Below, in pieces: positions 21,455 through 61,190 of a stretch of 64,000 nucleotides of DNA. Source of the DNA: a virus (taxonomy: Duplodnaviria; Caudoviricetes); the IMG/VR virus record IMGVR_UViG_3300035501_000527, positions 1,583-65,582 of that record, one strand, 5' to 3'. The notes beneath the pieces were generated by a model. The model was not told the DNA's origin. It searched no databases and was given only the letters and a program-made list of their open reading frames with translations. The translations under genes and the position numbers were made by a program. The number at the start of each line of letters is the position of its first letter. The first letter of the stretch is position 1.

Positions 21455-21487
21455 ATTCTCGGTTCTATTGGGAGGTGAAAGATATAG

Positions 21488-23653: not shown

Positions 23654-23822
23654 ATTAATATTGTTGTGAACACTTATTAGATACAAAAATCTATTGAACA
23701 GGTTTGGCGGTCTGCTTAATAGAAGATAAATACATATAACACAATTTAAAAAATCCAGTTTTATAAAATTGAATAGTAAAGAGGGCGATTAAAAGATATT
23801 AGAAAATAATATATATGAATTA

Positions 23823-24548
23823 TTGCAAGGTGATTGCATTGAATTAATGAGTAACATTCCAGATAAATCAATTGATATGATATTTTGTGACCTTCCTTAT
23901 GGGACGACTCAATGCAAGTGGGACATGGTTATTCCATTTGAATCGCTTTGGAAACAATACAATAGAGTTATTAAAGATAATGGTGCAATTTTGTTGTTTA
24001 GCAGCCAGCCATTCACAAGTGCTTTAGTTATGAGCAATCCTAAGATGTTTAAATATGAATGGATTTGGCAAAAGACTCATCCAAAAGGACATTTGAACGC
24101 TAAGAAAATGCCGATGAGAGCGCATGAAAATATAGAAGTATTCTATAAGAAACCTCCTACATACAATCCACAAATGACACATGGGCATAAAAGAAAGGTA
24201 GCAAAAACTAATTACATAAGAGAATCAGATGGTAATAGTTGTTACGGTAGAGAAGTGAGAAATACTTCTTATGATAGTACAGACAGGTATCCATTAGATG
24301 TTCAAGTATTTAGTAATGCCGATCAAACGAAGAAGTTGCATCCGACAGAAAAGCCAGTTGAACTATGTGAATATATGATTAAAACATATACAGATGAAGG
24401 ACAAATAATATTGGATAATTGTATGGGTTCTGGAACAACTGGTGTCGCAGCAATCAATTTACATAGAAAATTTATAGGGATTGAATTAGACAAGAATTAT
24501 TTTGATATTGCTGAAAAGCGGATTAAAGAAAGTTTAGAAATTAAATAA
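23823..24548 (+). CDS. N6-adenine/N4-cytosine DNA methyltransferase (beta class)
   Basis: DLPYG catalytic motif, HPTEKP, LDNCMGSGTTG; frame is open back to ATA 23796. Confidence 0.9.
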   Translation: MQGDCIELMSNIPDKSIDMIFCDLPYGTTQCKWDMVIPFESLWKQYNRVIKDNGAILLFSSQPFTSALVMSNPKMFKYEWIWQKTHPKGHLNAKKMPMRAHENIEVFYKKPPTYNPQMTHGHKRKVAKTNYIRESDGNSCYGREVRNTSYDSTDRYPLDVQVFSNADQTKKLHPTEKPVELCEYMIKTYTDEGQIILDNCMGSGTTGVAAINLHRKFIGIELDKNYFDIAEKRIKESLEIK

Positions 24549-24613
24549 CAAAATAAATCAGAAAGGAAAAAGATAGGTAGCTACTAAGGACATGTCACTT
24601 TCTGGTAAATAAT

Positions 24614-25156
24614 TTGGGACTAAATGTAGGATATTTAACATCTGATAAAGAAGATAATGAGCTTTATTCTCCCTACTATATTGTAGACCACATCATCAAA
24701 TATCTCCCAAAAGATAAAATTATATGGTGTTCATTTGATGAAGAATGGAGTGCTTTTTATCAAAGATTGAAAGAAGAAGGATTTAATGTAGTCAGAAGTT
24801 CGTTACAAGAAGGGCAGGATTTCTTCAAGTATGAACCTGATAAGTGGGATATTATCGTGTCTAATCCACCATTTTCAATTAAAGACAAGGTATTAGAACG
24901 TTTATATTCATTTAATAAGCCATTTGCAATTCTACTTCCACTAAACTCGCTGCAAGGTAAGACAAGATATAAATATTTTAAACAAGGTATTCAGATACTT
25001 AGTTTTGATGCGAGAGTCTGCTATCACGACAAAGAACATATGGATAGTGTAGTAAAAGGAAGCCCGTTCGCAACAGCTTATTTTTGTAGAAATTTACTTC
25101 CGAAAGATTTGATTGTGGAAAAGTTAATTACATATGAAAGACCGTTGATTAGATAG
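24614..25156 (+). CDS. Short adenine-specific DNA methyltransferase
   Basis: IWCSFD, SNPPFS motifs. Confidence 0.8.
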   Translation: MGLNVGYLTSDKEDNELYSPYYIVDHIIKYLPKDKIIWCSFDEEWSAFYQRLKEEGFNVVRSSLQEGQDFFKYEPDKWDIIVSNPPFSIKDKVLERLYSFNKPFAILLPLNSLQGKTRYKYFKQGIQILSFDARVCYHDKEHMDSVVKGSPFATAYFCRNLLPKDLIVEKLITYERPLIR

Positions 25157-25235
25157 TGTCTGATGGTGTTAGAACCATCGTTTCATAAGGAGGAAATGAG
25201 ATATAGAAATCAATATATATTTAGTAATACATTTT

Positions 25236-25721
25236 GTGATTTTTGTTGTTTCTTTTTTAGCAGCAATTTCTTGTTTTATATTTGTTGATGAAACTAATAT
25301 TAAATTTATTATATTTGCTTACATTTTTTTATTTATAAGTGTATCTTCCACAATATTTCTTTTTATTGGTGATGATAAAATGGAATCTTCTTCCTGGCAA
25401 TATGGTGAAGAACCGTACTCAACAGAACATATAGTTGCCTTGAGTGATAATAATATGATATCTGGAAAGTTTTATATTAGATCAGGCTATATAGATGAAA
25501 ATCTTTATTATCAATACCTAGTTAAATTAAATAGTGGTGGTTTTGTGGCAAATAAGGTTAAAGCATCAAACACTACATTATTTTATGATACAGACAATTA
25601 TCGTGTGGAATGGTATACAAGGACAAAGAAGTGGTTGTACTTTGAGAAAAAAGAAAATTATGTAAAGATTTATATTCCGGAAGACAGTATCAGTAGTGAT
25701 TTCTCCGTTGATTTGAATTAA
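25236..25721 (+). CDS. Membrane protein (two N-terminal TM helices)
   Basis: Hydrophobic N-terminus. Confidence 0.7.
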   Translation: MIFVVSFLAAISCFIFVDETNIKFIIFAYIFLFISVSSTIFLFIGDDKMESSSWQYGEEPYSTEHIVALSDNNMISGKFYIRSGYIDENLYYQYLVKLNSGGFVANKVKASNTTLFYDTDNYRVEWYTRTKKWLYFEKKENYVKIYIPEDSISSDFSVDLN

Positions 25722-25732
25722 AGAGGTTATTT

Positions 25733-26095
25733 ATGAAAGCAATAATTTTTGATAGGTGGTTTCAATCACCAGATGAATTTAAAGAATTTTGTGAAAGTAT
25801 CGGATATAAAAGATTTGACATTATAAGCTGTTCAAGAAATTATGATTTAATGTTTGACGAAAGAGTTATTGAATTTTGCGAAGAAAGATTATCAAAATTA
25901 TGGAGTGAAATGGTTTATAAAGGCAAAGAGAGCATTGAATTCAAAATAGGTTTCGCTGGTGCAGGATATATTCGTGATATAGATACAGATAAAACATGGG
26001 TTATTGAACACAATAAGGTCGATGCTCCGATTATTAAATATGTGACACCTAGAAGGAACGAGTATGGACATTTATCTGTGTTATACATTAATTGA
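25733..26095 (+). CDS. Hypothetical protein
   Basis: ORF track. Confidence 0.75.
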   Translation: MKAIIFDRWFQSPDEFKEFCESIGYKRFDIISCSRNYDLMFDERVIEFCEERLSKLWSEMVYKGKESIEFKIGFAGAGYIRDIDTDKTWVIEHNKVDAPIIKYVTPRRNEYGHLSVLYIN

Positions 26096-26127
26096 AGTAT
26101 TTTTTTATTTAGGAGGTTAAAACTAAT

Positions 26128-26331
26128 ATGGACAAAGAAGAATTATTAAATATCCTTGATAACGGTATGACGGTAGATGAGCTAATTAAAAAGTTAAGAA
26201 AATTTGATGAAGATATCCTTGTTATTAATGGTAAAGATAAGGAGGGTCTTCCTGTCACTTATGTTGAGGAAACAGATATTAATTACTGTTATGATGAAAT
26301 TATTCGTAAGAAAGTAGTACAAATCTGGTAA
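26128..26331 (+). CDS. Hypothetical protein
   Basis: ORF track; AGGAGG RBS. Confidence 0.75.
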   Translation: MDKEELLNILDNGMTVDELIKKLRKFDEDILVINGKDKEGLPVTYVEETDINYCYDEIIRKKVVQIW

Positions 26332-26346
26332 TAAAAGGAGAATATA

Positions 26347-26793
26347 ATGGTAGAAATCTTAGGTGGTCATCTAAAAATGTTCATGGATTTAATGGACGAG
26401 AATTGCGAAGACACGAAAATTACATATGCTGGTGATCAATATGAGGTTTGGCAAGTATCGGATTATTTATTTCAAAGAATGTGTGATATGTCAGAAGAAA
26501 AATTTGTTGAGATAGCTGGTAAAGATGCTTGGTGGAGAAGTGCAGAAGGCAGTGTTATGGGTGTTCCTGATATGAAGACACATATTAAAGGACATGAAAT
26601 GTTAGGATGGGATAAATTTTGGGAGCACGACGAATCAGATAATGTATCCGAATATGATTTTCGTAGTCTTACATCTTATTTATGTGACGTTTGTGGTGCT
26701 TCACAACCTACAAATGTCTGTGCGCTGGCAGTGGATCTAGCCAAGTATAACAATATGACTATGGGCGAGCTATTTAGTAAGTATGAAGGATAA
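26347..26793 (+). CDS. Hypothetical protein
   Basis: ORF track; AAGGAG RBS. Confidence 0.75.
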   Translation: MVEILGGHLKMFMDLMDENCEDTKITYAGDQYEVWQVSDYLFQRMCDMSEEKFVEIAGKDAWWRSAEGSVMGVPDMKTHIKGHEMLGWDKFWEHDESDNVSEYDFRSLTSYLCDVCGASQPTNVCALAVDLAKYNNMTMGELFSKYEG

Positions 26794-26806
26794 GGAGAAT
26801 TAAATT

Positions 26807-27112
26807 TTGAAATATAAAATTAGTAATGCTTATATAGAAATTAATGGAGAAAGCATAGCAGTTGGTACTGTTTTAGGGGAAGAAGATAAACCGGAAAGCC
26901 TGTATATGTCAGAGACAATTACAAATTCTGAATACGAAAAAGGATTAAAAGAATTTATTTATGGAACATCACGAATAAATGATTTGGTCTATCATCGTGT
27001 TGCAGTATTTAAGGATTTTGTCGCTACAAGTCCTGTTGAACAGAAGTGGATTGATGAATTGAAGTTAATGGGATACGATACGTCAAAATTAGCATATGTG
27101 ATAGCGGAATAG
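26807..27112 (+). CDS. Hypothetical protein
   Basis: ORF track. Confidence 0.75.
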   Translation: MKYKISNAYIEINGESIAVGTVLGEEDKPESLYMSETITNSEYEKGLKEFIYGTSRINDLVYHRVAVFKDFVATSPVEQKWIDELKLMGYDTSKLAYVIAE

Positions 27113-27344
27113 AAGCAACATTTTATTGGTAAAATAAAGCTAGTAAAATCAATGAGTTTAGAGGTTGAAAATTAAAAAAGAGATAAAATAGAACAAAAAT
27201 AAGTATTTTTAATGTTTTTCGGAAAATTATTAAAAATAGAGTCCAAAAAAGTCTTAGTTTTCAATAGTTTTTTGGCATTTAAATACAGAAACACAAAATG
27301 TAAAAATCCCCATAGAACGGTAGTTTCAAAGGGATTTTTATACA

Positions 27345-27555
27345 GTAATGTATAACCTCATATGAGGTATTTGAATAGCCTAAGTCTTAATTGACTACGT
27401 TCATTTAGTTATCACACCATAGAATGATTCCCTAGTTCTATGCAACTGTGTAGGCACTGTAAAAGTCTTGAAAATCACGAGACGGTCAACCTAGTATTGG
27501 TCGAATGACAAGCTATTTGAACATTGGCGAAGGGAAACAACTCTGAAAGGAGGAC
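27345..27555 (+). ncRNA. omegaRNA (HEARO-type) scaffold of IscB; 5' end approximate
   Basis: ATAGCCTAAGTC..GACTACGTT..CCCTAGTTCT..AACATTGGCGAAGGG hallmarks directly upstream of iscB. Confidence 0.8.
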
Positions 27556-27560
27556 GAAAC

Positions 27561-28844
27561 TTGAGAGTATTCGTCAAAAATATGAGAGGTGAGGCTTTAA
27601 TGCCTTGCTCTCAAAGAAAAGCTAGACTTCTATTAAAAGAAGATAAGGCAAAAATTATTAACTATAAGCCATTTGCAATACAATTAAAAATTCAAACTGG
27701 CGAATCAACACAAGAAATTCATCTTGGAATTGATACAGGTGCAAAGTATATTGGTATTGCTGCTACAAGCGGTAATAAGGTCTTAGCAAAAGGTGAGATT
27801 GAATTAAGAGATGATATTCATAAGAATATGACAAATCGACAAACCTTGCGAAAAACGAGAAGAAGCAGAAAAACAAGACATAGACCATCGAGATTTCTAA
27901 ATAGAAAAAGAAAAGATGGCTGGTTGCCACCAACAGTTCAAAGTAAGCTAGATGCTACTTTTATGTGGATAGACAAATTTATTAGTTTATTACCAAATCC
28001 AATTTTACATATAGAAGTTGGGAAATTTAATACTCAAAAAATGAAAAATCCTGACATTACTAACGAAGAGTATCAGAATGGTCAATGTGCAGGATATTAT
28101 GATACAAGGTATTTTGTATTTGCAAGAGATAATTATATATGTCAAGTATGCAAAAAGAAAAATAAAATATTACGCACACATCATCTTTTATATAAGTCAA
28201 AAGGTGGCACTGACAGTGCAGACAATTTAATAACTGTTTGCACCGATTGTCATACATCAGAGAATCACAAACAAGGTGGCATTTTCTATGATTGGATGAT
28301 GAAACATAAGAAAGTAAAATCATATAAAGAAGCAACATTTATGAACATTGTTAGAAGAAGAACTTTTCTGAAGTACCCCGATGCTGTTATTACGTATGGA
28401 TCAGAAACCTCTCCATATAGAAAAGAACTTGGGTTAGAGAAAACTCATTATAATGATGCTATTGCCATTTCAAAGATTGAAAATATTAAAGAAAATCCAA
28501 ACGAATATTTTTGTATTAAACAGTTCAGAAAGAAAAAACGCTCATTGCATGAAAGTATCCCAATCAGAGGCAGAAGAAAAGATAAGAATGTAAATGCAGA
28601 AAGAAAAAATAAGAATGTTCCTTATAGAGCAGGTTGGTATATGAATGATATGGCTTTGTGTGAAGGACAAATAGGATGGATTTATGGTTTTTCTGGAGGG
28701 AATACATCAAATGCTTGTGTATTAAGAGATATAAATGGTAGCATTGTTCGCACTTCAACTGTTAGTAAAAATACGCCAAGTATCAATACTTCTACTTTAA
28801 AATTTATTTGTCATAACAATAATTGGCAATATCAAATTATATAA
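27561..28844 (+). CDS. iscB: IscB RNA-guided endonuclease (PLMP, RuvC, bridge helix, HNH)
   Basis: ALMPC, GIDTG, RRSRKTRHR, HIEVG, HH..GG..NL..C..CH, HYNDA. Confidence 0.92.
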   Translation: MRVFVKNMRGEALMPCSQRKARLLLKEDKAKIINYKPFAIQLKIQTGESTQEIHLGIDTGAKYIGIAATSGNKVLAKGEIELRDDIHKNMTNRQTLRKTRRSRKTRHRPSRFLNRKRKDGWLPPTVQSKLDATFMWIDKFISLLPNPILHIEVGKFNTQKMKNPDITNEEYQNGQCAGYYDTRYFVFARDNYICQVCKKKNKILRTHHLLYKSKGGTDSADNLITVCTDCHTSENHKQGGIFYDWMMKHKKVKSYKEATFMNIVRRRTFLKYPDAVITYGSETSPYRKELGLEKTHYNDAIAISKIENIKENPNEYFCIKQFRKKKRSLHESIPIRGRRKDKNVNAERKNKNVPYRAGWYMNDMALCEGQIGWIYGFSGGNTSNACVLRDINGSIVRTSTVSKNTPSINTSTLKFICHNNNWQYQII

Positions 28845-28979
28845 TATTTGAAAAAATATTACTTTTATTCAGGTAGTTGCAAATGCCTGGATAAAAGCAG
28901 CTTTTACAAAATTAAAAGAAAGGAAATTAACAAGTAACACCGGTTAAAATGATATGCATATCCTTGAGGATCAAGGAAT

Positions 28980-30533
28980 TTGAACAAAAATACAAATAAT
29001 AATAAAAGTAATAATTTAACGAAATTAAAAGTAATTGAACTGTGTAGTGGAATTGGCGCACAGATTAAAGGAATTAAAAATACGAATTTATTTGATTCAG
29101 AAGTTGTAGCAACAGCAGATTTAGATAAAGAAGTGGTAGTCAGTTATGCGGCAATTCATTGTGGTTTAACAAATGATTTGATTAACAGTTATGAAAATTA
29201 TCCATCTAAAGAACAGATGGTAGAAGAACTTACAAAGAAAAGACTCGGATATGATTTTAAAAACGATAAACCTTATGATTGGGAAAAATTAGCAAAGAAA
29301 AAAGATAAAACAAAAGGTGTTGAGAAGTATTGGTTAGCAGATAAACTATCACATAATCTTGGAGATATGATAAAAATTGAAGAATTACCAGATTGTGATT
29401 TTCTATCTTACTCCTGTCCTTGTACCGACATCAGCATTTCCGGTAAACAAGAAGGACTAAAATGGACTTGTCAGGATTGTGGTCACGAATATGATCCGTC
29501 TACATTAGATGTAGAAACAAGATATACTTGCCCAAATTGCGGAAGTAATAATATAAAGTCAACTCGTTCAGGATTATTATATGAGGTTGAACGTTTGCTT
29601 GTAAAAGCAAAAGAGAATGGTAATCTGCCTAAATATTTACTTATGGAAAATGTTGACGCTTTAGTTTCAAAGAAATACATAGAGAGTTTTAATGATTGGA
29701 TTGAGAGATTAAGTAATCTTGGATATGATTCATATTATCAAACAATCAATGCGAAAAATACAGGTATTCCCCAAAATCGTAATAGGATCTTTTGCATATC
29801 AATTCTAAAAGATATTGATTCAAAACAGTTTGAATTTCCACACCCATTTGATACAGGCATTCGATTAAAGGATATGTTGGAAGATGATGAGGAAGTTTTA
29901 GACAAATATTTCCTATCGGATGAAGTACAAAGAAGGTTACAAATCACTGATGAAAAGTTTGAAAAGAATGTAGTTGGCACAACGCTTGGTAAAGAAAATC
30001 ATAGAATTGGAACGAGAGATCTTGTTTATTGGAAAGAAGGAATAATTGGTTGTCTTACATCAACAGACTATAAACAGCCACATCAGATATTAGAAAATCC
30101 TAATGAAATAAAAAAGATTGATAATAAGATTTCAGCTAATGAGCCAATACATATTGCTGATTTGAATAGCGAGAAATATCAAAGAATGCATGAGATTTCA
30201 AGAAGAGTATATAGTGAGGATGGTATTGCTCCTGCTATGCACACTTGTAATGGTGGCAACACAGAGCCAAAGATTGAAAAAGATAATCTAAGGATTGTTA
30301 GGAAGCTTACACCAAAAGAGGCTCATAGGCTTATGGGATTTGATGATATTGATTATGAGAATTGTAAAGCAGTTGGAATGTCTGATACTCAAGGATATAA
30401 ACAAGCGGGTAATTCGATTGTCACAAATTGCATATCTCTATTAATTGAACATTTATATAAAGCTCAGTATGACAATACATATATTTGTACAGATGAAAAG
30501 ATGGTAAATTTTCAGATTCCACAAGCGGAGTAG
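28980..30533 (+). CDS. C5-cytosine DNA methyltransferase with Zn-ribbon insertion
   Basis: ELCSGIG (I), SCPC (IV), MENV (VI), QNRNR (VIII), RKLTPKE (IX), QAGNSI (X). Confidence 0.92.
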   Translation: MNKNTNNNKSNNLTKLKVIELCSGIGAQIKGIKNTNLFDSEVVATADLDKEVVVSYAAIHCGLTNDLINSYENYPSKEQMVEELTKKRLGYDFKNDKPYDWEKLAKKKDKTKGVEKYWLADKLSHNLGDMIKIEELPDCDFLSYSCPCTDISISGKQEGLKWTCQDCGHEYDPSTLDVETRYTCPNCGSNNIKSTRSGLLYEVERLLVKAKENGNLPKYLLMENVDALVSKKYIESFNDWIERLSNLGYDSYYQTINAKNTGIPQNRNRIFCISILKDIDSKQFEFPHPFDTGIRLKDMLEDDEEVLDKYFLSDEVQRRLQITDEKFEKNVVGTTLGKENHRIGTRDLVYWKEGIIGCLTSTDYKQPHQILENPNEIKKIDNKISANEPIHIADLNSEKYQRMHEISRRVYSEDGIAPAMHTCNGGNTEPKIEKDNLRIVRKLTPKEAHRLMGFDDIDYENCKAVGMSDTQGYKQAGNSIVTNCISLLIEHLYKAQYDNTYICTDEKMVNFQIPQAE

Positions 30534-30551
30534 ATAATTCTGCTTGTGGGA
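30506..30551 (+). promoter_or_regulatory. Candidate -1 programmed ribosomal frameshift signal
   Basis: A_AAT_TTT heptamer in MTase frame, 6-nt spacer, 12-bp stem 30519-30530/30538-30549; -1 frame open into ORF 30560. Confidence 0.7.
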
Positions 30552-30559
30552 TAGTTAGA

Positions 30560-30994
30560 ATGGGAAATGTGTCAACAGGCAATTCACAAGCTGGCATGGT
30601 TTATGGAATAAATGGGTTGTTTCCTGCTGTATGTGCTGGCACTCATGGTTATGCAAATGGAAACATTTATGATGATAGAAATAATATTGAATTACCAGCG
30701 GTATTAAAATACCAAAGAACAGAGTACGCTAAGAAAATACGTAAGGATTATGAAGCGGGTAGAATCAAGGAACGTAGATGTAATATGCGTGAATGCACTC
30801 TGAGAGATGATGGATTGTGTAATACTATCACGACAGTGCAGAAAGATAATTACATTGTTGTCGGTGCTGCTATGAGAGGACGTTATAACTCTGATGGAAA
30901 AATTGAACAACAGATAGAAGTCAGGGATGATGAAGTGTCTAATGCAATTACGACAGCACAGAAAGATTCATTGGTGGTCAAATATGAAGAATGA
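30560..30994 (+). CDS. Protein made of MTase target-recognition-like modules
   Basis: VYGINGLFPAV, NTITTVQKD, NAITTAQKD resemble the MTase variable-region modules. Confidence 0.7.
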   Translation: MGNVSTGNSQAGMVYGINGLFPAVCAGTHGYANGNIYDDRNNIELPAVLKYQRTEYAKKIRKDYEAGRIKERRCNMRECTLRDDGLCNTITTVQKDNYIVVGAAMRGRYNSDGKIEQQIEVRDDEVSNAITTAQKDSLVVKYEE

Positions 30995-31177
30995 TAAAGA
31001 AACATATGTAGAAAGAAAGTATAGAGAGTTCTATGAGAAGAATGGTTATATCCCAAAATATTTTGTCCCATATAACTGCTTGGAAGTATCTGATTATGCC
31101 CTACATTGACAACAGAATCAAATACAAGCTTTGGAAAATCCGGTACTGTACTAATTGTTGTGAATAACGATAAATAA
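30984..31177 (+). pseudogene. Further TRD-like module ORF, frameshifted at CCC 31099-31101
   Basis: Adding one C gives DYAPTLTTESNTSFGKSGTVLI, ending TAA 31175-31177. Confidence 0.55.
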
Positions 31178-31180
31178 AAT

Positions 31181-31258
31181 ACTATATATAGTGGTTGTAA
31201 TGTTACAATACCACTATATATAGAAATATTTTGGGAATAAAACTTCAATTCTATTCGG
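31181..31258 (+). repeat. Composite site A
   Basis: ACTATATATAGT-N20-ACTATATATAGA-N12-ATAAAA-N6-TTCTAT. Confidence 0.8.
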
Positions 31259-31281
31259 AAAAATGTGAAAGGAATTTTTGT

Positions 31282-31560
31282 ATGAAGATATGTAAATGTG
31301 ACTATTGTGGTGAACTATGTGAATCAACACCACAATATGTATTACCATCAGTAGAATTTGTAGATACAGACATCAAAGGTGGAAGTGATAATGTAACCTT
31401 ATCAAAATATACAAGCAGAGTAATTCAGGATGAGCAAGTTGATATATGCCATAAGTGTAGAGAAATTATAGCTGAATTTACAAATTTGATGAAGTTTTGT
31501 GATGTAAATGTTCAAGCTATTAAAGAAGACTTGTTTAAAAAATGCACAAGAGTGGTATGA
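31282..31560 (+). CDS. Hypothetical Zn-finger-like protein
   Basis: GAAAGGA RBS favours ATG 31282; CDYC...CHKC. Confidence 0.7.
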   Translation: MKICKCDYCGELCESTPQYVLPSVEFVDTDIKGGSDNVTLSKYTSRVIQDEQVDICHKCREIIAEFTNLMKFCDVNVQAIKEDLFKKCTRVV

Positions 31561-31721
31561 GTAGCTTGAAGAAAGTAGATATTGTAAGAAAAGAGAAAAA
31601 TGAATTAGAGAAACATAACACGATATGATATGAAATTTTTATAAGGGATTTTTTAGAGAACATATAAGAAAGGATAATTAGTAGCTGGCTTTAAAGGTTG
31701 CAACCGCTTTGGTACTAATTA

Positions 31722-32828
31722 TTGAAAATTGCAATTATTGATGCAGATTTAATAGGAAGAAATAAGCATAGATTTCCTAATCTCGTTTCTATGAAATTAT
31801 CAGGATACTACAAAGAGTTAGGAAGTGATGTTGAATTAAAAACAGATTATGAGAATCTATCAGATTATGACAAAGTATTCATATCTAAAGTATTCACAGA
31901 CACACCAATAGACGAAACCATATTAAATCTTCCAAACGTAGAATATGGTGGTACAGGTTTCTTTTATGATAAAGCACCAAAATTACCAGATGAAGTAGAA
32001 CATCATATGCCGGATTATCACCTATATGATGATTGGGTAAATGATAAGTTAGCGAATGGTAGTAAGAAGAATGATTTTAAATATTACACGGATTATTCGA
32101 TTGGGTTACTGAGTAGAGGATGCTTCCGTCAGTGTCAGTTTTGTGTAAACAGGAATTATAAAAGAGTTTCAGTACATAGTCCATTAGACGAATTTGTTGA
32201 TAAATCAAGAAAGAAAATATGCTTATTAGATGATAATTTCTTAGGTTGCCCTAATTGGAAAGAAATGTTGCTTGAATTGCAAGCCACTGGCAAACCATTT
32301 CAATTTAAGCAAGGGCTTGATGAGCGTATATTAACAGATGAAAAATGTGAGTTGTTATTTAAGAGTAAGTATGATGGTGATTATATCTTCGCATTTGATA
32401 ATATTGCCGATTATGACCTGATTGAAAAGAAGTTACAGTTACTAAGAAAGTATACAGATAAAGTTCCTAAATTTTATGTCTTTTGTGGTTTTGATAGAGA
32501 AGATAAATGGGATAGTGATTTTTGGAAACAAGATTTATGGGATTTATGGAAACGCATCGAATTGCTTATGAAATATCATTGTTTACCATACATAATGAGG
32601 TTTGCAAAGTATGAAGAATCTCCATATAGAGGAACTTATATCAATTTGGCTGCGTGGTGTAACCAACCATCTGCTTTTAAGAAAAAGTCATATAGAGAGT
32701 TTGTGAAATATCAGCAATCAAGACATCCCAAAGAATGTTCAGAAACAAGATATTTGAAACAAATTGAACAGGATATGCCTGATTTAGCAGAAAAATATTT
32801 TGATATGAAGTTTATGGATTTTAATTAA
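31722..32828 (+). CDS. Radical SAM-domain protein
   Basis: RGCFRQCQFC (CX3CX2C), LDDNF motif. Confidence 0.8.
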   Translation: MKIAIIDADLIGRNKHRFPNLVSMKLSGYYKELGSDVELKTDYENLSDYDKVFISKVFTDTPIDETILNLPNVEYGGTGFFYDKAPKLPDEVEHHMPDYHLYDDWVNDKLANGSKKNDFKYYTDYSIGLLSRGCFRQCQFCVNRNYKRVSVHSPLDEFVDKSRKKICLLDDNFLGCPNWKEMLLELQATGKPFQFKQGLDERILTDEKCELLFKSKYDGDYIFAFDNIADYDLIEKKLQLLRKYTDKVPKFYVFCGFDREDKWDSDFWKQDLWDLWKRIELLMKYHCLPYIMRFAKYEESPYRGTYINLAAWCNQPSAFKKKSYREFVKYQQSRHPKECSETRYLKQIEQDMPDLAEKYFDMKFMDFN

Positions 32829-32847
32829 AATAAAAGAGAGGGATATT

Positions 32848-33087
32848 ATGAAATTCATTTTAAACGGTTGCGATATATCTTTCACAGCAGAAGCACCTGA
32901 AGATATTACATTAAAACAGTTATTAGCACAATGCGACAAAATTAAACCGGATTATTGTGCTTGTGGAATCTGTTCTTATGAAAAAGAAGGATTTAGAGAA
33001 GATGTAGAACCGGAAATTATTATTGGATATGACAGTATTAGGAAAGCTAGTGACGATGTAAGTTGTAAAATTATTGGAGAAGAATAA
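32848..33087 (+). CDS. Hypothetical protein
   Basis: ORF track. Confidence 0.7.
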   Translation: MKFILNGCDISFTAEAPEDITLKQLLAQCDKIKPDYCACGICSYEKEGFREDVEPEIIIGYDSIRKASDDVSCKIIGEE

Positions 33088-33124
33088 TTTAGTAAACAAT
33101 AAATTAAGAAAGAGGTTGTAAAAG

Positions 33125-34192
33125 ATGATTAGAAAAGTTGATAAGAAAAACAAATTTATATCCGTATTCAATCCAGATACAGGATTTTATGTGAGAACTG
33201 GAGTTATTAAAGATGGTAAAGATACCGGCGAAGATCCTTTTATGACTTCATTTCCTGAATTACTCGATGTGGGAATTATGCAAACATGTGTATGTAGTCA
33301 TAAATGTAATGTTGATTGCTACCAGAAAGCAATTGATAGAACTGGAAATAATATGTCTGTAAAAGATTTTAAAAGTATCTTGGAACAAGGTAAGGGTAAA
33401 TTATTTCAGGTAGCTCTTGGTGGAGCTGGTGATGTAGATACACATGAAAATTTTGAAGATATTGTAAGACTTTGCAGAGAATATAATATTGTTCCAAACT
33501 TTACAACAAGTGGAATCATGATGACAAAAGAAAAAGCTGAGATATGCAAGAAGTATTGCGGTGCAGTTGCGGTGTCAGAACATTTTGCTGATTATACGGA
33601 TAAGGCTTTAGATTTACTTTTAAATGCGGGTGTTAAGACTAATATTCACTATGTATTAAGTAATAAAAGCATTGATACTGCTATTGATAGATTGAAAAAC
33701 AATAGCTTTAAAAGAGGGATTAATGCAGTTGTTTTTCTTCTGTATAAACCTGTAGGACTTGGTATTGAAGAAAATATGTTGAAAGCGAATGATCCGAGAG
33801 TAAAAGAATTCTTTAGTTTGATTGATAAAGGAAATTATCATCACAAAATTGGATTTGATAGCTGCTCTTGTTCAGGAATAGTTAATTATGCAAGTAATAT
33901 AAATCTTGACACTCTTGATTTCTGTGAAGGAGCAAGATATTCAGCTTACATTGATGCAAATATGAATATGATGCCTTGTTCTTTTGCTAATCAGGATAGT
34001 AACTGGTTTGTTAGTTTAAGAGAACATACAATCAAGGAAGCGTGGGATAGTGATATTTTTGAAAAATTTAGATATTCGTTAAGAAATTCATGTAATGGAT
34101 GCATCAATAGATTAAACTGTGCTGGTGGGTGTCCACTTGTTAATCAGATTACATTGTGTAATAGGAAAGAAAGAGACTTTAAGACAAGATAA
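33125..34192 (+). CDS. Radical SAM protein with SPASM domain
   Basis: CSHKCNVDC cluster, ALGGAG, TTSG, MPCSF, CNGC-X5-CAGGC. Confidence 0.85.
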   Translation: MIRKVDKKNKFISVFNPDTGFYVRTGVIKDGKDTGEDPFMTSFPELLDVGIMQTCVCSHKCNVDCYQKAIDRTGNNMSVKDFKSILEQGKGKLFQVALGGAGDVDTHENFEDIVRLCREYNIVPNFTTSGIMMTKEKAEICKKYCGAVAVSEHFADYTDKALDLLLNAGVKTNIHYVLSNKSIDTAIDRLKNNSFKRGINAVVFLLYKPVGLGIEENMLKANDPRVKEFFSLIDKGNYHHKIGFDSCSCSGIVNYASNINLDTLDFCEGARYSAYIDANMNMMPCSFANQDSNWFVSLREHTIKEAWDSDIFEKFRYSLRNSCNGCINRLNCAGGCPLVNQITLCNRKERDFKTR

Positions 34193-34194
34193 GC

Positions 34195-34596
34195 GTGGTG
34201 AGAATTACGAAGATTAGATTTGATTTTGTGACTAATTCATCAAGTAGTAGTTTTATTATTGAAAAAGACCAATTATCATACGGACAATTGTTAAAATATT
34301 TATTACAGATTGCAAATAAAGAAGCATCTTATTGGGACGATGAATCCGATGATAAAACATATAAATGGAAAGACGTAGAAAAGAATTGTGTTGCTGGTAG
34401 ATATAACATTATTGAAGCAACGCCGGAAAATCCGCATACAGAATATGATGAATTTGGATATGGGGATTCAGAGGAAAAGATTTATACAAATCATTATATT
34501 ATAGACAATGGAAGTTGTGGAAGATACGATTGGGATGTTGTTAGAGAAGTATTAGATAAGCATGGTATTAAATGGAGTTATGGGTATTGCGATTAA
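34195..34596 (+). CDS. TNSSSSS-motif protein 1
   Basis: KIRFDFVTNSSSSSF near N-terminus. Confidence 0.8.
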   Translation: MVRITKIRFDFVTNSSSSSFIIEKDQLSYGQLLKYLLQIANKEASYWDDESDDKTYKWKDVEKNCVAGRYNIIEATPENPHTEYDEFGYGDSEEKIYTNHYIIDNGSCGRYDWDVVREVLDKHGIKWSYGYCD

Positions 34597-34608
34597 GGAG
34601 GATATGTA

Positions 34609-35385
34609 GTGAAGATTCGGAATGATTACGTTACTAATAGTTCAAGTAGCAGCTTTATTATCGGTAAGAAGGATTCTGAATCAGTTACAATTGATTCGGT
34701 TTTCCAGACAATAAAAACATTCTATAAAGAGTACCTAGATGCAAGAAACGCTGTTATCCAATATATTAAAGACAATCCTAAACTTGGTTTGGTTTATCAG
34801 TTATCAGAAGATGGAGCATATTATCATTTTAAATTTATTAATGGTAACAGGTTTGATAATAAGAATACAGCAATAGAGCGATCTATTGAAAGAGATTTTG
34901 GTATTTCTACATGGGATTATTTTTATAAAGATTATGATTGGTTAGAATGCGATACATATAACGATTATGAAAATTATTGGATTGCTAAAATGAATAATGC
35001 TAATAATAAGTGGATTCATGCGCCGTTTACCATAGCAGATTTTCTCGAAGAAAAAGAAATTAGATGGTTACATTGGGGATGTAATGAAAAAGGCATTCAT
35101 AAAGTCAACAGTAAATCTAATACTCTTGGTTGGTATTACAAATATGTAGAAGAAGCATTTGAAAATATGGAATCATGTGATAAGTGTAATTATTCAGATT
35201 GGTGTGACAGAGAAGAATGTGAACAACAAAAGATTTTTCTAAAAGGACAAGATATACCAGAAGATAAAGCATGTTTGTGGTTATTAGGAAGAGTTTGTAT
35301 TCATTCAGAATGCGGATATATTCCTGATTATGTAGTAACGAGATTAGCGAATATATCAGAATATTCGTGCAATCATATGGGATAA
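34609..35385 (+). CDS. TNSSSSS-motif protein 2
   Basis: MKIRNDYVTNSSSSSF. Confidence 0.85.
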   Translation: MKIRNDYVTNSSSSSFIIGKKDSESVTIDSVFQTIKTFYKEYLDARNAVIQYIKDNPKLGLVYQLSEDGAYYHFKFINGNRFDNKNTAIERSIERDFGISTWDYFYKDYDWLECDTYNDYENYWIAKMNNANNKWIHAPFTIADFLEEKEIRWLHWGCNEKGIHKVNSKSNTLGWYYKYVEEAFENMESCDKCNYSDWCDREECEQQKIFLKGQDIPEDKACLWLLGRVCIHSECGYIPDYVVTRLANISEYSCNHMG

Positions 35386-35402
35386 AGAAAGGATGAATTA
35401 TC

Positions 35403-35834
35403 GTGAAAATTAGAAGCGACTACGTGACAAATTCAAGCAGCAGTAGTTTTGTTATTGCTTATAGAAATCTTCCAGAATTTGACGAAGATACACTGACCAA
35501 ATATCCATTTTTGAAAAATTACGGAGAACTAATAGAGAAAGTATTATTTACAGAAGGTGATAATGAAACCGATGAGGGTATCGTATCAAGAACAAAAGAA
35601 GAGTATGATAAGAACTTTATTTCTGTATATGGGTGGAAAGATAATCAATCTGTAGAAGATATTTTAGAAGATGATGATTGGCTCACGAATACATATAACA
35701 AATCTATTGAATATATTGAAAAAGGATTCAATATTTTAGATAAGAGAGTGGATTATAACGATACATATTGCTCAAATATGATTCGTGAATTAGCAAAAGA
35801 TAAAGATAATTTTGTAATATTGGAGGATGAATAA
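35403..35834 (+). CDS. TNSSSSS-motif protein 3
   Basis: MKIRSDYVTNSSSSSF. Confidence 0.85.
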   Translation: MKIRSDYVTNSSSSSFVIAYRNLPEFDEDTLTKYPFLKNYGELIEKVLFTEGDNETDEGIVSRTKEEYDKNFISVYGWKDNQSVEDILEDDDWLTNTYNKSIEYIEKGFNILDKRVDYNDTYCSNMIRELAKDKDNFVILEDE

Positions 35835-36428
35835 TTGAAGATAAGAACTGATTTTGTCACGAATAGTAGTAGCTCTAGTTTTGTATGTGAAATCTGTGGA
35901 CGAACTGAAAGCGGATTTGATGCTAGTTTAAGTGATTTCGATATGATGGAATGTATTAATGGTCATACATTTTGTTGTGATGAAGCGTTAGAAAGACCAT
36001 CAAAAAAAGAACTTATTAAAATGATTTTAGAAAACGAATGGAATAAAGATGCATGGGATTCTAAAACAAAGTATAGAAGAGATTTTTCGGAAGAAGAATT
36101 ACTTGTTATGGAAGAAGATGTTTTGTTTGACAAGTTCTGTTCTGAATGTGGATATTATGAAGTTCCTGAATGCGTTTGCCCTATCTGCCAGTTTATTGAA
36201 TATTCCGAATATGACCTTAGTGCTTATTTGTTAAAAGAGTATGGGGTATCAAGAGATGAAGTTTTCGCAGAAGTGAAAAAGCTTAATAAGAGAAGAAGAA
36301 AGTTGTATGAGAATGAATATATTACATATGTTTGTAAGAAATTTGACTTAAATCCAACTGAAATTGTTGCAGCTTGGAAAGAAAAGTTTGGTACATACAA
36401 TAAATTTAGAGAGTGGTTGGAAAATTAG
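35835..36428 (+). CDS. TNSSSSS-motif protein 4 with Zn-finger-like Cys clusters
   Basis: MKIRTDFVTNSSSSSFVCEIC; CPIC. Confidence 0.85.
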   Translation: MKIRTDFVTNSSSSSFVCEICGRTESGFDASLSDFDMMECINGHTFCCDEALERPSKKELIKMILENEWNKDAWDSKTKYRRDFSEEELLVMEEDVLFDKFCSECGYYEVPECVCPICQFIEYSEYDLSAYLLKEYGVSRDEVFAEVKKLNKRRRKLYENEYITYVCKKFDLNPTEIVAAWKEKFGTYNKFREWLEN

Positions 36429-36439
36429 AAAAGAGACAT

Positions 36440-36516
36440 ACTGTATATAGTGCTTTACAAATGTTAAAACACTATATATAGATTTAAAATCCAGATAAAA
36501 TTTTTGTTTTATTTGG
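36440..36516 (+). repeat. Composite site B
   Basis: ACTGTATATAGT-N19-ACTATATATAGA-N12-ATAAAA-N6-TTTTAT. Confidence 0.8.
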
Positions 36517-36529
36517 AAAGTTACGATGA

Positions 36530-36712
36530 TTAAAAATTTAATTCTATTCCATCAGAAATAGATAATTTATAAAATTTATGTATATTGCCTTGCTTGTCAA
36601 AACCTTTAATAATCAGTCTATCTAGCCAAAAATAACCTTCTTTAAGGTTTGACAAAGTATTACCACTTGTATCTCTCATAAACTGGATACATTCATTAAA
36701 AATTGGATTCAC
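36530..36712 (-). CDS. Inverted 5' end (59 codons) of the PAPS-reductase-like gene
   Basis: GTG start with AGAAAGG leader; joins 36818 onward in frame when the segment is re-inverted. Confidence 0.75.
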   Translation of the reverse strand: MNPIFNECIQFMRDTSGNTLSNLKEGYFWLDRLIIKGFDKQGNIHKFYKLSISDGIELNF

Positions 36713-36817
36713 TCACAACCTGAGTGTAATGTACATTACGATTTAACTAGTATTATCCTTACCTTTCTTTACTTTTTGTCGTTTGCAAACTTTAAAAATT
36801 CTTGAATAGAATTAAAT
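36536..36817. other. Inverted (possibly invertible) DNA segment bounded by 14-bp inverted repeats
   Basis: ATTTAATTCTATTC 36536-36549 and GAATAGAATTAAAT 36804-36817. Confidence 0.8.
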
Positions 36818-36823
36818 ATTGAT

Positions 36824-37942
36824 GTGCCAGAAAAGGGCTATGACAATATTGAAGATGTAGATTTAGCAAGTTGGAACGACTTAGTAAAAATGCAGGAACG
36901 GCATTTGTATCAGATAGAGAAGAAATCAAAAGGGATTATTAAGAAGAAAATGCGAAAGTTTGATGAATATATACCATTAGTTCCTGTAAGTATGGGTAAA
37001 GATTCTATGGTTACTTGCCATTTGGTAAGAGAATGTTATCCAGATACCAAAGCGATTTTTAATAATACAACTTTGGATTGTGCTGATACATATAGAATGG
37101 CAAAACAGTTTCCTAATTGTGAAATGATGACACCAAAGCAAGGTTTCTATCAATACATAAAAGAACAGAACGTAGTGTTTAATAGAATATCTCGTGGTTG
37201 TTGCCGGATATTTAAGGTTGGTGAAATGGTCAATCAGTTGGATCATAATACTCCATATTTGATGTTTATGGGTATGAGAAATGAAGAAAGTAATACTAGG
37301 AGTGGTTATGGTGATGAATGGATTAACGAAACTGAATGGGGAGATACTTGTTGGCAAGGAATTTTACCAATTAGAAAATGGTCTGAATTAGATATTTGGC
37401 TTTATACATTTTGGAAGAATATAGAAATAAATACTAAGTACAGAAAAGGCTATTCAAGAGTTGGTTGTGCTATTGCTTGCCCTTACTATACCAAATCAAC
37501 ATGGATTCTTGATAAATATTGGTATCCAACAATGCGAAAGAGATGGGAAGATATTTTAAGAGAAGATTTTATTAGTAATAAGAAGTGGATTGTCATGAAC
37601 TGTACAATTAATGAATATATCAACTTAGCTTGGAATGGCGGTGTATTCAGGCAAGAGCCAACAGAAGAAGTCATAAAAGAATATGCTGAATATAACGGTT
37701 TAGATAAAACAGTGGCAAAGCAATATTTCAATAAGTATTGTGCTAATGGCTGCAAAACAAATTCTGGTAAACAGAAGAAAATAAAAGAGAAGAATGTATT
37801 AGCAATGAATATGAAATATCATGGCAGAAATATTAACAAGTTTTATTGCAAAAAGTGCCTGATGAAGATGTTGGATATGGATGAAGATAAGTGGAATGCT
37901 AATATTGAGACATTCAAACAACAGGGTTGTGCTTTGTTCTAA
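36824..37942 (+). CDS. PAPS-reductase-family protein; 5'-truncated in this orientation
   Basis: SMGKDS PP-loop, GMRNEES..R, SRVGCAIACP; C-terminal CKKC; no RBS before GTG 36824. Confidence 0.85.
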   Translation: MPEKGYDNIEDVDLASWNDLVKMQERHLYQIEKKSKGIIKKKMRKFDEYIPLVPVSMGKDSMVTCHLVRECYPDTKAIFNNTTLDCADTYRMAKQFPNCEMMTPKQGFYQYIKEQNVVFNRISRGCCRIFKVGEMVNQLDHNTPYLMFMGMRNEESNTRSGYGDEWINETEWGDTCWQGILPIRKWSELDIWLYTFWKNIEINTKYRKGYSRVGCAIACPYYTKSTWILDKYWYPTMRKRWEDILREDFISNKKWIVMNCTINEYINLAWNGGVFRQEPTEEVIKEYAEYNGLDKTVAKQYFNKYCANGCKTNSGKQKKIKEKNVLAMNMKYHGRNINKFYCKKCLMKMLDMDEDKWNANIETFKQQGCALF

Positions 37943-37950
37943 AAATGAAT

Positions 37951-38027
37951 ACTATATATAGTAGTTTATAAATGCTCAAACACAATATGTTGATTAGATT
38001 TCCCGATAAAACCTTTCTTCTATTTGG
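37951..38027 (+). repeat. Composite site C
   Basis: ACTATATATAGT-N19-ACAATATGTTGA-N12-ATAAAA-N6-TTCTAT. Confidence 0.8.
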
Positions 38028-38048
38028 AAAATTAACAGGAGGAAACTA

Positions 38049-38402
38049 ATGACAAAAAGAGAGAATGTATTAACAAGAGTACCATTCCAAACAAGATTTT
38101 CTGGGATGTACGTTTTGGATAAATCAAAAGATTGGGTACTTAATACCATAAAAATGTGTGGTATAGAAGATAATTGTATAGATGGAAGGTCTATAAATTT
38201 TGATATATCTTCAATAAACAACAGAATTATTATTCGTCCACTAGAAAAATATGATGATTATTTTTTGGTTGCAGAGTATCTTTGTTTTACTTCTGTTGTT
38301 GAAATTAAATCAGATGATTATATAGATGTTATTAAACAAAGTAATGGCGATTATCTATTTACTATGAAAAAAGGTGACTTAAATGATAACCAACAAGCGT
38401 GA
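38049..38402 (+). CDS. Hypothetical protein
   Basis: ORF track; AGGAGG RBS. Confidence 0.75.
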   Translation: MTKRENVLTRVPFQTRFSGMYVLDKSKDWVLNTIKMCGIEDNCIDGRSINFDISSINNRIIIRPLEKYDDYFLVAEYLCFTSVVEIKSDDYIDVIKQSNGDYLFTMKKGDLNDNQQA

Positions 38403-38568
38403 ACAGAAAATCTGTGACAAATACTCTGCCTACGATGAAACAGGTCATGTTTAGTGCTTTGAATGTCCGTTGAGTAAAGGTAATTGGAGACAGCATGACT
38501 TTCGGTGTAAGGCGAATACTCATTACGATAGGCATACAGGAGAATGGGAATACGATGAAAAGAGGTGA
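38383..38568 (+). pseudogene. Small Cys-containing gene with in-frame TAG
   Basis: MITNKREQKICDKYSAYDETGHV*CFECPLSKG...; TAG at 38452-38454; AAGGTGA RBS. Confidence 0.55.
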
Positions 38569-39160
38569 TTCTTTGAGAAGTGATTTTCGGTTAGGAGATA
38601 AAGTTATTTTCGATAAAAGTAATGGCAATGATAATTTTAAAAGTAAAGGTTTGTTGACTAATTTTGGAATCATTATAAATAAAAATGATATTGACACATA
38701 TCATATTATGTATTTTGACGATTGTAAAATTTCAATAGCATATTATATTTCTGATGATTATATCAAACCTATTGAGGATAATACATATGAACAATCAAGG
38801 ATTGAAGTATATTATGAAAAACTTATTGAGGATGAAAAGAAGAAATTAAAAACAGTATCACAAGAAGAAAAGGATAAGCAGAAAGTAGAAAGATATGAGA
38901 ATATTAAACAACGAATTATCCGCAATTGTGAATGGTGTGTAACTAAGGATTTAGATGATGAAGATTTTGTAAATCGTGTAAAAGAAATTGCTAATCTTAA
39001 AAAGCAACTATTCTCACCTGAACGGCTTCCGTGTATGAATGAGATTCATAGATATAATGGAACTATTAAATATAATATTAGAGAATTGGAGTATGAAAGA
39101 GATAAGCTGCTGAAACAAATTTCTGATGAAGAAATCGAATTAAGATTGGGAAAGTTTTGA
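38555..39160 (+). CDS. Hypothetical protein
   Basis: In frame with track ORF 38495; start uncertain. Confidence 0.7.
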   Translation: MKRGDSLRSDFRLGDKVIFDKSNGNDNFKSKGLLTNFGIIINKNDIDTYHIMYFDDCKISIAYYISDDYIKPIEDNTYEQSRIEVYYEKLIEDEKKKLKTVSQEEKDKQKVERYENIKQRIIRNCEWCVTKDLDDEDFVNRVKEIANLKKQLFSPERLPCMNEIHRYNGTIKYNIRELEYERDKLLKQISDEEIELRLGKF

Positions 39161-39240
39161 TTTAAAATTTACAAGAAAGGATACAAGGCGTTGCAACCGT
39201 AAGAGATATCTGTCCTTTTTGGTAAAAGAAAATAAAATAT

Positions 39241-39936
39241 ATGGGTTCAAAGAGCAGGATAGTTAATAACATTCTGCCAATAATTCAGAAAAGATTAGAA
39301 GATTATAATATTAAAACGTACATCGAACCATTTTGCGGCGGCTGTAACGTAATTGATAAAGTGGTTTGTGATAAGAAAATTGCATCAGATAATAACAAAT
39401 ACCTAATAGAGTTGTTCAAAAATATAGACAAAATAGATTTACTTCCAGAGATTGCTTCTTATGAGCATTATTGTGAATGTAGAGATGCTTATAACAATTC
39501 TGATTTCTCAAATTTTCCCAAATGGTACATTGGTATGATTGGATTTCTCGCTAGTTATTCCGGCAGGTTCTATGACGGAGGGTTTAATGGAACTGGTTAT
39601 TTAGAAGGAAGAACAAAAAGAAATTATTATGATGAAGCAAAAAGAAATTTAGCTGCACAAGTTAAAGATTTAGATGGCATTGATTTTGTTTATGGCGATT
39701 ATTTTGACCTATATAAAGATAATGAGGATTGCTTATTCTACTGTGATATTCCGTATAAAGATACAAAGCAGTATAATACTTCAAGAAATTTCGATTATGA
39801 AAAATTTTGGGATTGGGCTGAAAGAATGTCAGAGAAGAATATAGTATTAGTTAGCGAATATCAAGCACCTAAACAATGGGAATGTATATGGGAGAAACCA
39901 TTATTAAAGACAATGAATCATGGGGAAAAATGTTAA
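39241..39936 (+). CDS. Dam-like (D12 class) N6-adenine methyltransferase; C-terminal frameshift likely
   Basis: (IKY)MGSK, EPFCGG, YCDIPY; alternative-frame tail NSNEKLFEIRE ends 39970. Confidence 0.85.
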   Translation: MGSKSRIVNNILPIIQKRLEDYNIKTYIEPFCGGCNVIDKVVCDKKIASDNNKYLIELFKNIDKIDLLPEIASYEHYCECRDAYNNSDFSNFPKWYIGMIGFLASYSGRFYDGGFNGTGYLEGRTKRNYYDEAKRNLAAQVKDLDGIDFVYGDYFDLYKDNEDCLFYCDIPYKDTKQYNTSRNFDYEKFWDWAERMSEKNIVLVSEYQAPKQWECIWEKPLLKTMNHGEKC

Positions 39937-42114: not shown

Positions 42115-42161
42115 ATAAAAATTTTCCAAATAAATCTCGGCTTCTATTTCCATCGAGAGAG

Positions 42162-44896: not shown

Positions 44897-44948
44897 TAAA
44901 ATAAATTCTCATTCTATTTGGTAAAAAAAATAGGAAGGAGGGTGAAAT

Positions 44949-45614: not shown

Positions 45615-45711
45615 TTCTGATAGAGATATTTCTAAATGTAGCAATTATTTGAGCTATATTCTGTTCAGGTGGAAAACAGCCCGCCTTTTCCCATTCTCAG
45701 AAATTCACACC

Positions 45712-61142: not shown

Positions 61143-61190
61143 AATTTTGATTTTATTTGGTTATAAATAGAATTATTTAAGGAGGTAACT

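Follow-up and report, generated by a model that had tools for sequence, protein, structure and literature searches.

A leader with a distant Shine-Dalgarno-like element and perfect palindromes recurs before DNA-modification genes in phages of Clostridia

Results

Five leaders in an island of modification genes

The window analysed here, by which we mean the whole stretch of 64,000 nucleotides, is a 64-kb piece (positions 1,583 to 65,582) of the 65.6-kb IMG/VR virus record IMGVR_UViG_3300035501_000527. It belongs to a phage whose host type is Clostridia, has a G+C content of about 30%, and carries nearly all of its genes on one strand. Most of these genes have an ordinary Shine-Dalgarno (SD) sequence 6-10 nt ahead of the start codon. 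In five genes of a modification-gene island, the SD-like heptamer AGAAAGG lies 54, 63, 55, 56 and 58 nt ahead of the start, which is beyond the functional range of an SD, and short perfect palindromes occupy the space between. We refer to this region as the leader. The five leaders are listed below with their parts; class I and its half-SDs are described in a later section.

24560..24616, plus strand: leader 1, class I, preceding the short N6-adenine methyltransferase gene 24614-25156 (start TTG 24614); 5' half-SD 24560-67, palindromes 24577-84 and 24589-96, 3' half-SD GGU 24604-06
28917..28982, plus strand: leader 2, preceding the C5 cytosine methyltransferase gene 28980-30533 (start TTG 28980); distal SD 28917-24, palindromes 28939-44 and 28951-62
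31667..31724, plus strand: leader 3, class I, preceding the gene for a 368-aa protein, 31722-32828 (start TTG 31722); half-SD 31667-74, palindromes 31689-96 and 31696-705, GGU 31711-13
36710..36768, minus strand: leader 4, class I, preceding the detached, inverted 5' end of a PAPS-reductase-like gene (start GTG 36712); half-SD 36768-62, palindromes 36751-46 and 36739-26, GGU 36720-18
39174..39243, plus strand: leader 5, class I, preceding a D12 (Dam-like) methyltransferase gene that ends at 39936 (start ATA 39232); half-SD 39174-81, palindromes 39190-97 and 39204-11, GGU 39221-23

When the sequence was read directly, all five heptamers, their distances to the starts and each of the palindromes that the initial annotation had listed proved to be exactly where it had placed them. 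The same annotation held that most leaders contain an anti-SD tract or a stem. Pyrimidine (anti-SD) tracts are indeed present in leaders 1, 2 and 5 (24598-604, 28961-67 and 39213-20), whereas leader 3 has a stem that starts directly after the SD. In the predicted folds, the tracts of leaders 1 and 5 pair with the half-SDs at 24560-67 and 39174-81, and leader 3 is closed by an 11-bp stem (31673-83 with 31713-23). The insert of leader 1 is 36 nt long and its GGU lies 10 nt ahead of the start; the corresponding values for leader 5 are 39 nt and 11 nt. Leader 2 is a variant of its own, in which a distal element is combined with a proximal AAGGA that is locked by a predicted 7-bp hairpin (28961-67 with 28971-77). 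The two-state switch once proposed for leader 2 is plausible. The hairpin is not conserved in the homologous leader of relatives.

As for the genes themselves, the short adenine methyltransferase at 24614 has a weak EcoRI_methylase match. The gene at 31722 had been labelled a radical SAM gene; its leader is there, and its 368-aa protein has no Pfam match. The ATA start that had been assigned to the Dam-like gene is plausible, as homologues have ATG, ATT or TTG at that codon, with ATG 39241 as a possible alternative.

The heptamer as such is not enriched in the window (17 copies, against 12.6 +/- 3.3 expected), and of its 9 intergenic copies, counted by eye, 5 belong to the distant leaders and 4 are ordinary SDs. 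Unlike the heptamer, the arrangement is enriched. Of the ~37 palindromes in the whole window that are 8 nt or longer and include four or more G/C, 6 fall in the five leaders, which together cover ~275 nt and where ~0.16 would be expected. A missed upstream start or a recoding event was rejected as an explanation for the long spacing: in-frame stops lie between the distal SDs and the starts, so no open reading frame (ORF) reaches upstream.

The PAPS-reductase-like gene deserves separate mention. Two 17-nt inverted repeats (36533-49 and 36804-20) bracket a segment in which the gene's leader and its first ~55 codons stand in reverse orientation, and flipping the segment 36533-36820 would restore an in-frame gene. 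The related locus L009 has the uninverted arrangement and does not have the 17-nt repeats. The inverted segment is either a switch or a lineage-specific rearrangement.

The arrangement recurs in related phages and prophages

More than 100 contigs of related phages and prophages, from Lachnospiraceae and other Clostridia, have the same arrangement. We gathered homologues by protein similarity alone, obtaining 80 loci with relatives of the 31722 protein and 80 with relatives of the short methyltransferase. The regions upstream of these homologues fall into two groups: those with an ordinary SD at the start, and those with an SD-like element 45-70 nt upstream together with two short perfect palindromes. 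A palindrome of at least 8 nt was found in 43 of the 46 unique upstream regions that have only a distal SD, versus 4 of the 35 that have a proximal one. That the leader recurs among homologues picked by protein similarity only rules out chance as the source of the arrangement.

A pattern scan for a single leader type returned at least 120 viral contigs, and prophage copies were located in genomes of Lachnospiraceae and other Clostridia, among them that of Konateibacter massiliensis (L299). A pattern scan for C5 methyltransferase homologues found none, and the INPHARED collection contained no near-identical phage records. Altogether, 46 leader types could be separated, with SD-to-start spacings of 46-72 nt.

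Leader types and genes do not keep company. The type that returned the 120 or more contigs was found before at least 10 unrelated genes, and, the other way round, many leader types occur within one gene family. D12 methyltransferases are preceded by the leader 1 type in three related loci (L082, L129 and L162), the leader 3 type precedes a different gene in L258, and the leader 4 type stands in direct orientation in L009, ahead of an intact 441-aa PAPS_reduct protein. Relatives of leader 5 (L007, L123) and of leader 2 (G003, L257, L260) have other palindromes at the same two places. Within single genomes, a 40-kb stretch of one large relative contains three different leaders, each before a methyltransferase gene, and the GCGC-centred type occurs in exactly one copy in each of five large relatives.

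Class I leaders interrupt a long Shine-Dalgarno sequence

The only parts conserved across the leaders are the SD half, the GGU and short linkers. Class I comprises 32 of the 46 types, four of the window's leaders among them (24560, 31667, 36768 on the minus strand, and 39174). Its upstream element reads AGAAAGG(A/U) and never runs into a GGAG core. Closer to the start, a GGU or GGGA is found between -16 and -6 in 23 of the 32 types, where the background is 12%. Virtual excision of 33-47 nt (median 38) joins AGAAAGGA to this GGU, and the break point is exact, directly after AGGA. In 21 of the 23 types the GGN then lies 8-12 nt ahead of the start, where this portion of an SD is normally found.

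The 16S tail GGAUCACCUCCUUUCU, read in a host-type Lachnospiraceae genome, is complementary to AGAAAGGA plus GGU; AGAAAGGA alone complements the last 8 nt of the 16S tail in L308, and at 54-63 nt it is too distant from the starts for normal initiation. Homologues of these genes that lack the leader have the long SD uninterrupted at the same place. From the geometry of the excision and from these leaderless homologues, we conclude that the best description of class I is an SD broken in two by an insert.

The remaining 14 types, none of them in the window, form class II. They have no GGU, and their complete GGAG core is paired to an ACUCC tract that ends 7-11 nt ahead of the start.

A closing stem covaries between leader types

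A predicted closing stem pairs the start of the insert or the distal SD with the region just ahead of the start codon. Of 45 types, 38 have this outer helix in their minimum free energy folds. The predicted stem includes the SD in about half of the types; where the SD lies outside, the two flanks sum to ~0-16 nt. This closing stem covaries between types. Cognate 5' and 3' flanks pair at -9.0 kcal/mol, versus -7.5 for non-cognate flanks (0 of 5000 permutations). In a model-fitted alignment, which leans toward structure, 80% of cells pair, versus 74% when shuffled (0 of 500) and 32-44% when slid, and 6 of 14 stem pairs change on both sides. The GCGC-centred family alone has several different complementary arm pairs. 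At the level of single loci, a palindrome is kept through a two-sided change between L009 and leader 3 of the window, and the leader 3 stem is kept in L010 through two G.U pairs.

The GCGC-centred types have a further option, in that the 5' arm fits either a nearby partner (the first palindrome) or a distant arm that overlaps the 3' half-SD. Judged by these alternative pairings, leaders of the GCGC-centred types look like a two-state device.

RNAalifold, run on a plain MAFFT alignment, returned only 3 invariant pairs, because the subtypes are out of register in that alignment. A covariance model built from the GCGC-centred leaders recovered its own family at E values of 1e-16 to 1e-4 and gave no significant match to the leaders of the window (best 31666-31730, E 0.4). 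What links the leader types is their architecture and the intermediates between them, rather than homology to a model.

The palindromes are perfect, variable and self-complementary to the centre

Relatives have wholly different words at both insert positions, and these words are almost always perfect palindromes of even length. Whole palindromes are swapped between close relatives, and the interior of the insert is its most variable part. The four-base "loops" of the leader hairpins are themselves self-complementary in 7 of 10 cases, versus 2 of 30 in coding DNA. Because a monomeric RNA hairpin does not require a self-complementary centre, such centres are explained only by a duplex, either double-stranded DNA or two paired RNA copies, or else by an origin in template switching.

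Some words are strongly avoided in the window: it has a single GGCC (36 expected), a single CGCG (16 expected) and 58 copies of GATC (210 expected), and it lacks CTTAAG, TCTAGA and ATCGAT altogether (21, 20 and 11.5 expected). This avoidance is probably a footprint of host restriction systems. The leader palindromes are built of words that the window does not avoid, which argues against the idea that they serve as restriction-site bait or targets. Their turnover fits restriction pressure.

Most genes behind the leader encode DNA-modifying enzymes

A Pfam scan of the genes downstream of 30 distinct leader types gave a DNA-modification match behind 25 of them. The matches were to N6/N4 DNA methyltransferases (7), D12 DNA methyltransferases (7), C5 DNA methyltransferases (6), PAPS-reductase-like proteins (3), the Mom family (1, in L167) and radical SAM proteins (1). 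RNA ligases accounted for 2, and 6 had no Pfam match, several of these having methyltransferase-like N-termini. The leaders before RNA ligase genes (L124:4799-4867, L090:5732-5799, and L217 on the minus strand) are longer, with the same architecture plus a third hairpin. The leader is therefore not strictly confined to DNA-modifying enzymes.

Start codons behind class I leaders are non-ATG in 78% of types (TTG 13, GTG 5, ATT 4 and ATA 3, with 7 ATG), compared with 34% of the SD-associated starts in the window. Some of the ATT starts are secure because they coincide with the beginning of a conserved N-terminal domain, for example C5 motif I or the Mom domain. ATA or ATT also stands at the conserved first codon in short-methyltransferase homologues whose SD is ordinary; we observed this in nine loci (L129, L136, L144, L148, L149, L300-L302 and L305), where the start (at position 3001 or 1501) has no in-frame ATG, GTG or TTG close by. 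From these sequences, non-canonical initiation seems habitual in the short-methyltransferase family.

The N6_N4 methyltransferase gene 23823-24548 of the window has no proximal SD. An SD-like AAAGAGGG lies ~41 nt upstream, and the palindromes there are AT-only. This region (23780-23825) may be a degenerate sixth leader.

Discussion

A proposed translational gate on a split or locked SD

The reading that we favour, with moderate confidence, is that the leader is a cis-acting translational gate, in which a split or locked SD is combined with a folded insert and a weak start. The gate would act as follows in class I. A long SD for the host-type 16S tail is interrupted after AGGA by a self-folding insert of ~38 nt, so that the 5' half, AGAAAGGA, lies 54-58 nt from the start and the 3' half, GGU, has the spacing of a normal SD. 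The closing stem would, in the free mRNA, join either the beginning of the insert or the 5' half-SD to the region beside the 3' half; it would keep the two halves near each other and yet occlude at least one of them. Productive binding of the 30S subunit would require that the insert be looped out as two small hairpins, upon which both halves could pair with the rRNA tail. Together with weak starts (UUG, GUG, AUU or AUA), this would give a low, structure-dependent output of enzymes that alter DNA. The leader probably gates the dose of potentially harmful DNA-modification enzymes. We infer that both halves bind the ribosome; the structure may either raise or lower translation.

The initial annotation had spoken of an undescribed regulatory element, and this is supported: the leader is conserved, covaries, is associated with DNA-modification genes and has no match in Rfam. 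Of the three mechanisms that had been offered for it, a structure-bridged ribosome-binding site (RBS) comes closest, with the amendment that the leader is better described as an SD interrupted by an insert.

Several observations weigh against a split-SD gate. The 5' half-SD is itself paired in the predicted folds of leaders 24560 and 39174, so the structure could be a simple lock. The 14 class II types, with their complete paired SD and no GGU, are beyond the split-SD geometry, and leader 28917 has a proximal SD of its own. The GGU could be a weak independent SD, in which case the distal half would have another role. Folding energies relative to shuffled sequences range from z +0.9 to z -2.5, so that the monomer fold is not clearly more stable than expected. 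Finally, a translational gate leaves the self-complementary centres of the palindromes unexplained.

Alternative explanations

Some of these observations would suit a pure lock that needs a key, that is, an OFF structure which sequesters the SD and is opened by a trans-acting phage factor, by upstream translation or by RNase processing. Every class II type pairs its SD, the half-SDs of 24560 and 39174 pair with anti-SD-like tracts, and the proximal SD of 28917 is locked. The nearby or distant partner of the GCGC-centred 5' arm and the leader of the Mom-family gene in L167 also point this way. A single sequence-specific key is difficult to reconcile with leader interiors that differ so much within one genome, and the short frames in the leaders are conserved in neither length nor start. 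A Com-like zinc ribbon (PF10122) was not found in the 65-kb record, which is ~37% complete; we attach little weight to this, as control genomes gave no match either. On balance we think a pure lock possible, though rather unlikely.

The palindromes themselves would be accounted for if they let one mRNA molecule pair with another of its kind, which would make translation or decay a function of message abundance. Only a duplex explains the self-complementary centres described above, and the GCGC-centred type is present in a single copy per genome. Predicted homodimers gain -15.4 kcal/mol, compared with -7.1 for shuffled sequences (mean z -3.0). Single mismatches are G.U in 19 cases versus A.C in 7, of which an excess of ~1.6 to 1 is already predicted by base composition. 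Against self-pairing, the SD stays paired in the predicted dimers, and leaders 31667 and 39174 share one 8-base palindrome, which means that the types are not strictly orthogonal. We consider this explanation doubtful. Equally speculative is a two-part device that would unite it with the split SD. Here the SD would be rebuilt on the 16S tail while self-complementary words pair copies of the same mRNA, so that counter-defence enzymes would be translated or destroyed according to message concentration, through a private code per gene that is kept changing by restriction pressure and the avoidance of recombination.

Alternatively, the palindromes could be read as double-stranded DNA, as sites for the methyltransferases or for symmetric proteins, with the methylation state feeding back on expression. 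Perfect, even-length palindromes of 6-14 bp are the usual form of type II sites, they stand before methyltransferase genes, and mom of phage Mu is partly controlled by Dam methylation. The shuffling of types is hard to accommodate, however, as one palindrome can stand before different genes and one gene can have different palindromes; at least 10 different words per genome would require as many readers. The palindromes also lie within the transcript, since they are downstream of the SD-like element and often 12-14 nt past the previous stop codon, and the closing stem tolerates G.U pairs. On the methylation sensing that had been suggested for the leaders, the evidence speaks neither for nor decisively against: the palindromes do not follow the downstream gene, and they use words the phage does not avoid. 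We regard a role as DNA sites as improbable.

A low probability also attaches to an mRNA stabiliser, in which the distal SD-like sequence would bind the 30S subunit without initiation and, with a hairpin, block 5'-to-3' decay by RNase J1. The model for this is STAB-SD, a 5' mRNA stabiliser of Bacillus thuringiensis cry3A (PMC4113751), likewise an SD-like sequence of a Firmicute, complementary to the 3' end of the 16S rRNA and remote from the start codon on its upstream side. The phages' hosts are Firmicutes too, and the distal element complements the 16S tail at a distance too great for normal initiation. STAB-SD differs in that it lies ~125 nt upstream, at a processed 5' end, and is accompanied by neither a second half-SD nor a closing stem nor palindromes. 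Several of the present leaders have their distal SD paired, and a stabiliser would leave the fixed GGU distance, the exact break after AGGA and the restriction to modification genes unaccounted for.

A riboswitch for S-adenosylmethionine (SAM), S-adenosylhomocysteine (SAH) or another small ligand, one of the mechanisms proposed at the outset, is very improbable: the downstream enzymes use SAM and the size is near that of small pseudoknot aptamers, but there is no conserved core, the would-be ligand pocket being the hypervariable interior, the leader also precedes RNA ligase and PAPS-reductase-like genes, and cmscan against Rfam 15 matched no riboswitch family, those for SAM/SAH, SAM-II/V and preQ1 included, with E<=10 as the cutoff over 24300-39500 and E<=1 in 8 related loci.

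Two further candidates were rejected. No conserved reading frame was found within the leaders, where start, length and frame vary; short frames often end near the main start, as a leader peptide or termination-reinitiation would have it, but chance in AT-rich sequence explains them. A promoter inside the leader was set aside, as the promoter scan gave no signal. No promoter or terminator consensus was seen at the leaders in that scan, which was uninformative, overall counts being at or below shuffled expectation.

Relation to known systems

In phage Mu, Com opens a stem-loop that hides the start region of mom. The leaders described here resemble this system in that a stem-loop covers the initiation region of a DNA-modification gene, with predicted SD occlusion in 24560, 28917, 39174 and class II, and in that a Mom-family gene is among those preceded by the leader. 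There is no match in sequence or structure, and the present leader differs by its distal SD and two palindromes.

Split ribosome-binding sites have been described for T4 genes 38 and 25 (PMC3014915) and for E. coli thrS (PMC3936740). There, as here, the SD and the start are too far apart linearly. The ribosome accommodates the intervening RNA structure of those sites, as it would here; the T4 sites are likewise phage-encoded and conserved within a clade. The differences are that the spacer is 22-27 nt in those cases and 54-63 nt in the window, and that the SD is there separated from the AUG, whereas class I cuts the SD itself. The present leader also has two perfect palindromes, serves many unrelated genes among which it is shuffled, and stands before mostly non-AUG starts.

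PeSLs, the mobile regulatory cassettes of T4-type phages (PMC2839356, PMC4122927), are similar as short conserved intergenic cassettes 5' of accessory genes that recur before unrelated genes and are shuffled as modules. They consist of an early sigma-70 promoter and a terminator-like stem-loop, whereas the present element lies between SD and start. Translational attenuation of ermC and cat shares the upstream SD, the alternative pairings and the sequestered downstream RBS; it depends on a conserved stalling leader peptide, in place of which the leaders have variable short frames.

Phage DNA modifiers, such as methyltransferases and Mom-like proteins, decide survival of host restriction. To our knowledge, control of their dose or timing has been worked out for very few, Mu mom among them. 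In the phages studied here, one compact architecture that is absent from Rfam covers a whole modification-gene island, across a large clade of gut Clostridia phages. If the split SD works as proposed, the idea of a split RBS would go from a two-gene curiosity of T4 to a reusable module, and AUU and AUA would be natural initiation codons backed by long pairing to rRNA. The perfect, fast-changing palindromes may represent a code for pairing between RNAs, sites in DNA or scars left by template switching. In practical terms, the leader is a marker for counter-defence genes in phage metagenomes.

Other features around the modification island

Searches of Rfam at gathering and at permissive thresholds returned only HEARO and one tRNA. 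The HEARO RNA (IscB omega-RNA) lies at 27325-27541 (89.6 bits, E 8e-17) and is directly followed by the gene for a 427-aa RRXRR + HNH protein (IscB) at 27561-28844. Together they form an OMEGA-type element (27325-28844), inserted into the modification island immediately ahead of leader 2.

Long hairpins or palindromes with a ACTATATATAGTGG-like arm recur in intergenic regions near the island (31181-31223, 36441-36481, 37950-37963 and 45710-45725); they may be terminators or cassette-boundary sites. Shortly ahead of the SD of many accessory genes, we also noticed a repeated intergenic motif that consists of ATAAA, 6-8 nt, and TTCTATTTGG, at sites that include 21460-21487, 38020-38040, 42130-42160, 44900-44930 and 61150-61180. 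Related phages have a AGAGAATATAA-like box 5-35 nt ahead of SDs, those of the leaders included. Both the TTCTATTTGG motif and the AGAGAATATAA-like box may be phage-specific promoters.

In the region 25186-25330, a good SD and ATG 25196 open a 30-codon frame that overlaps, in another frame and across T-runs, the start of a 161-aa ORF (25236-25721). Possible readings are a small membrane peptide, a site of frameshifting and an error in the sequence.

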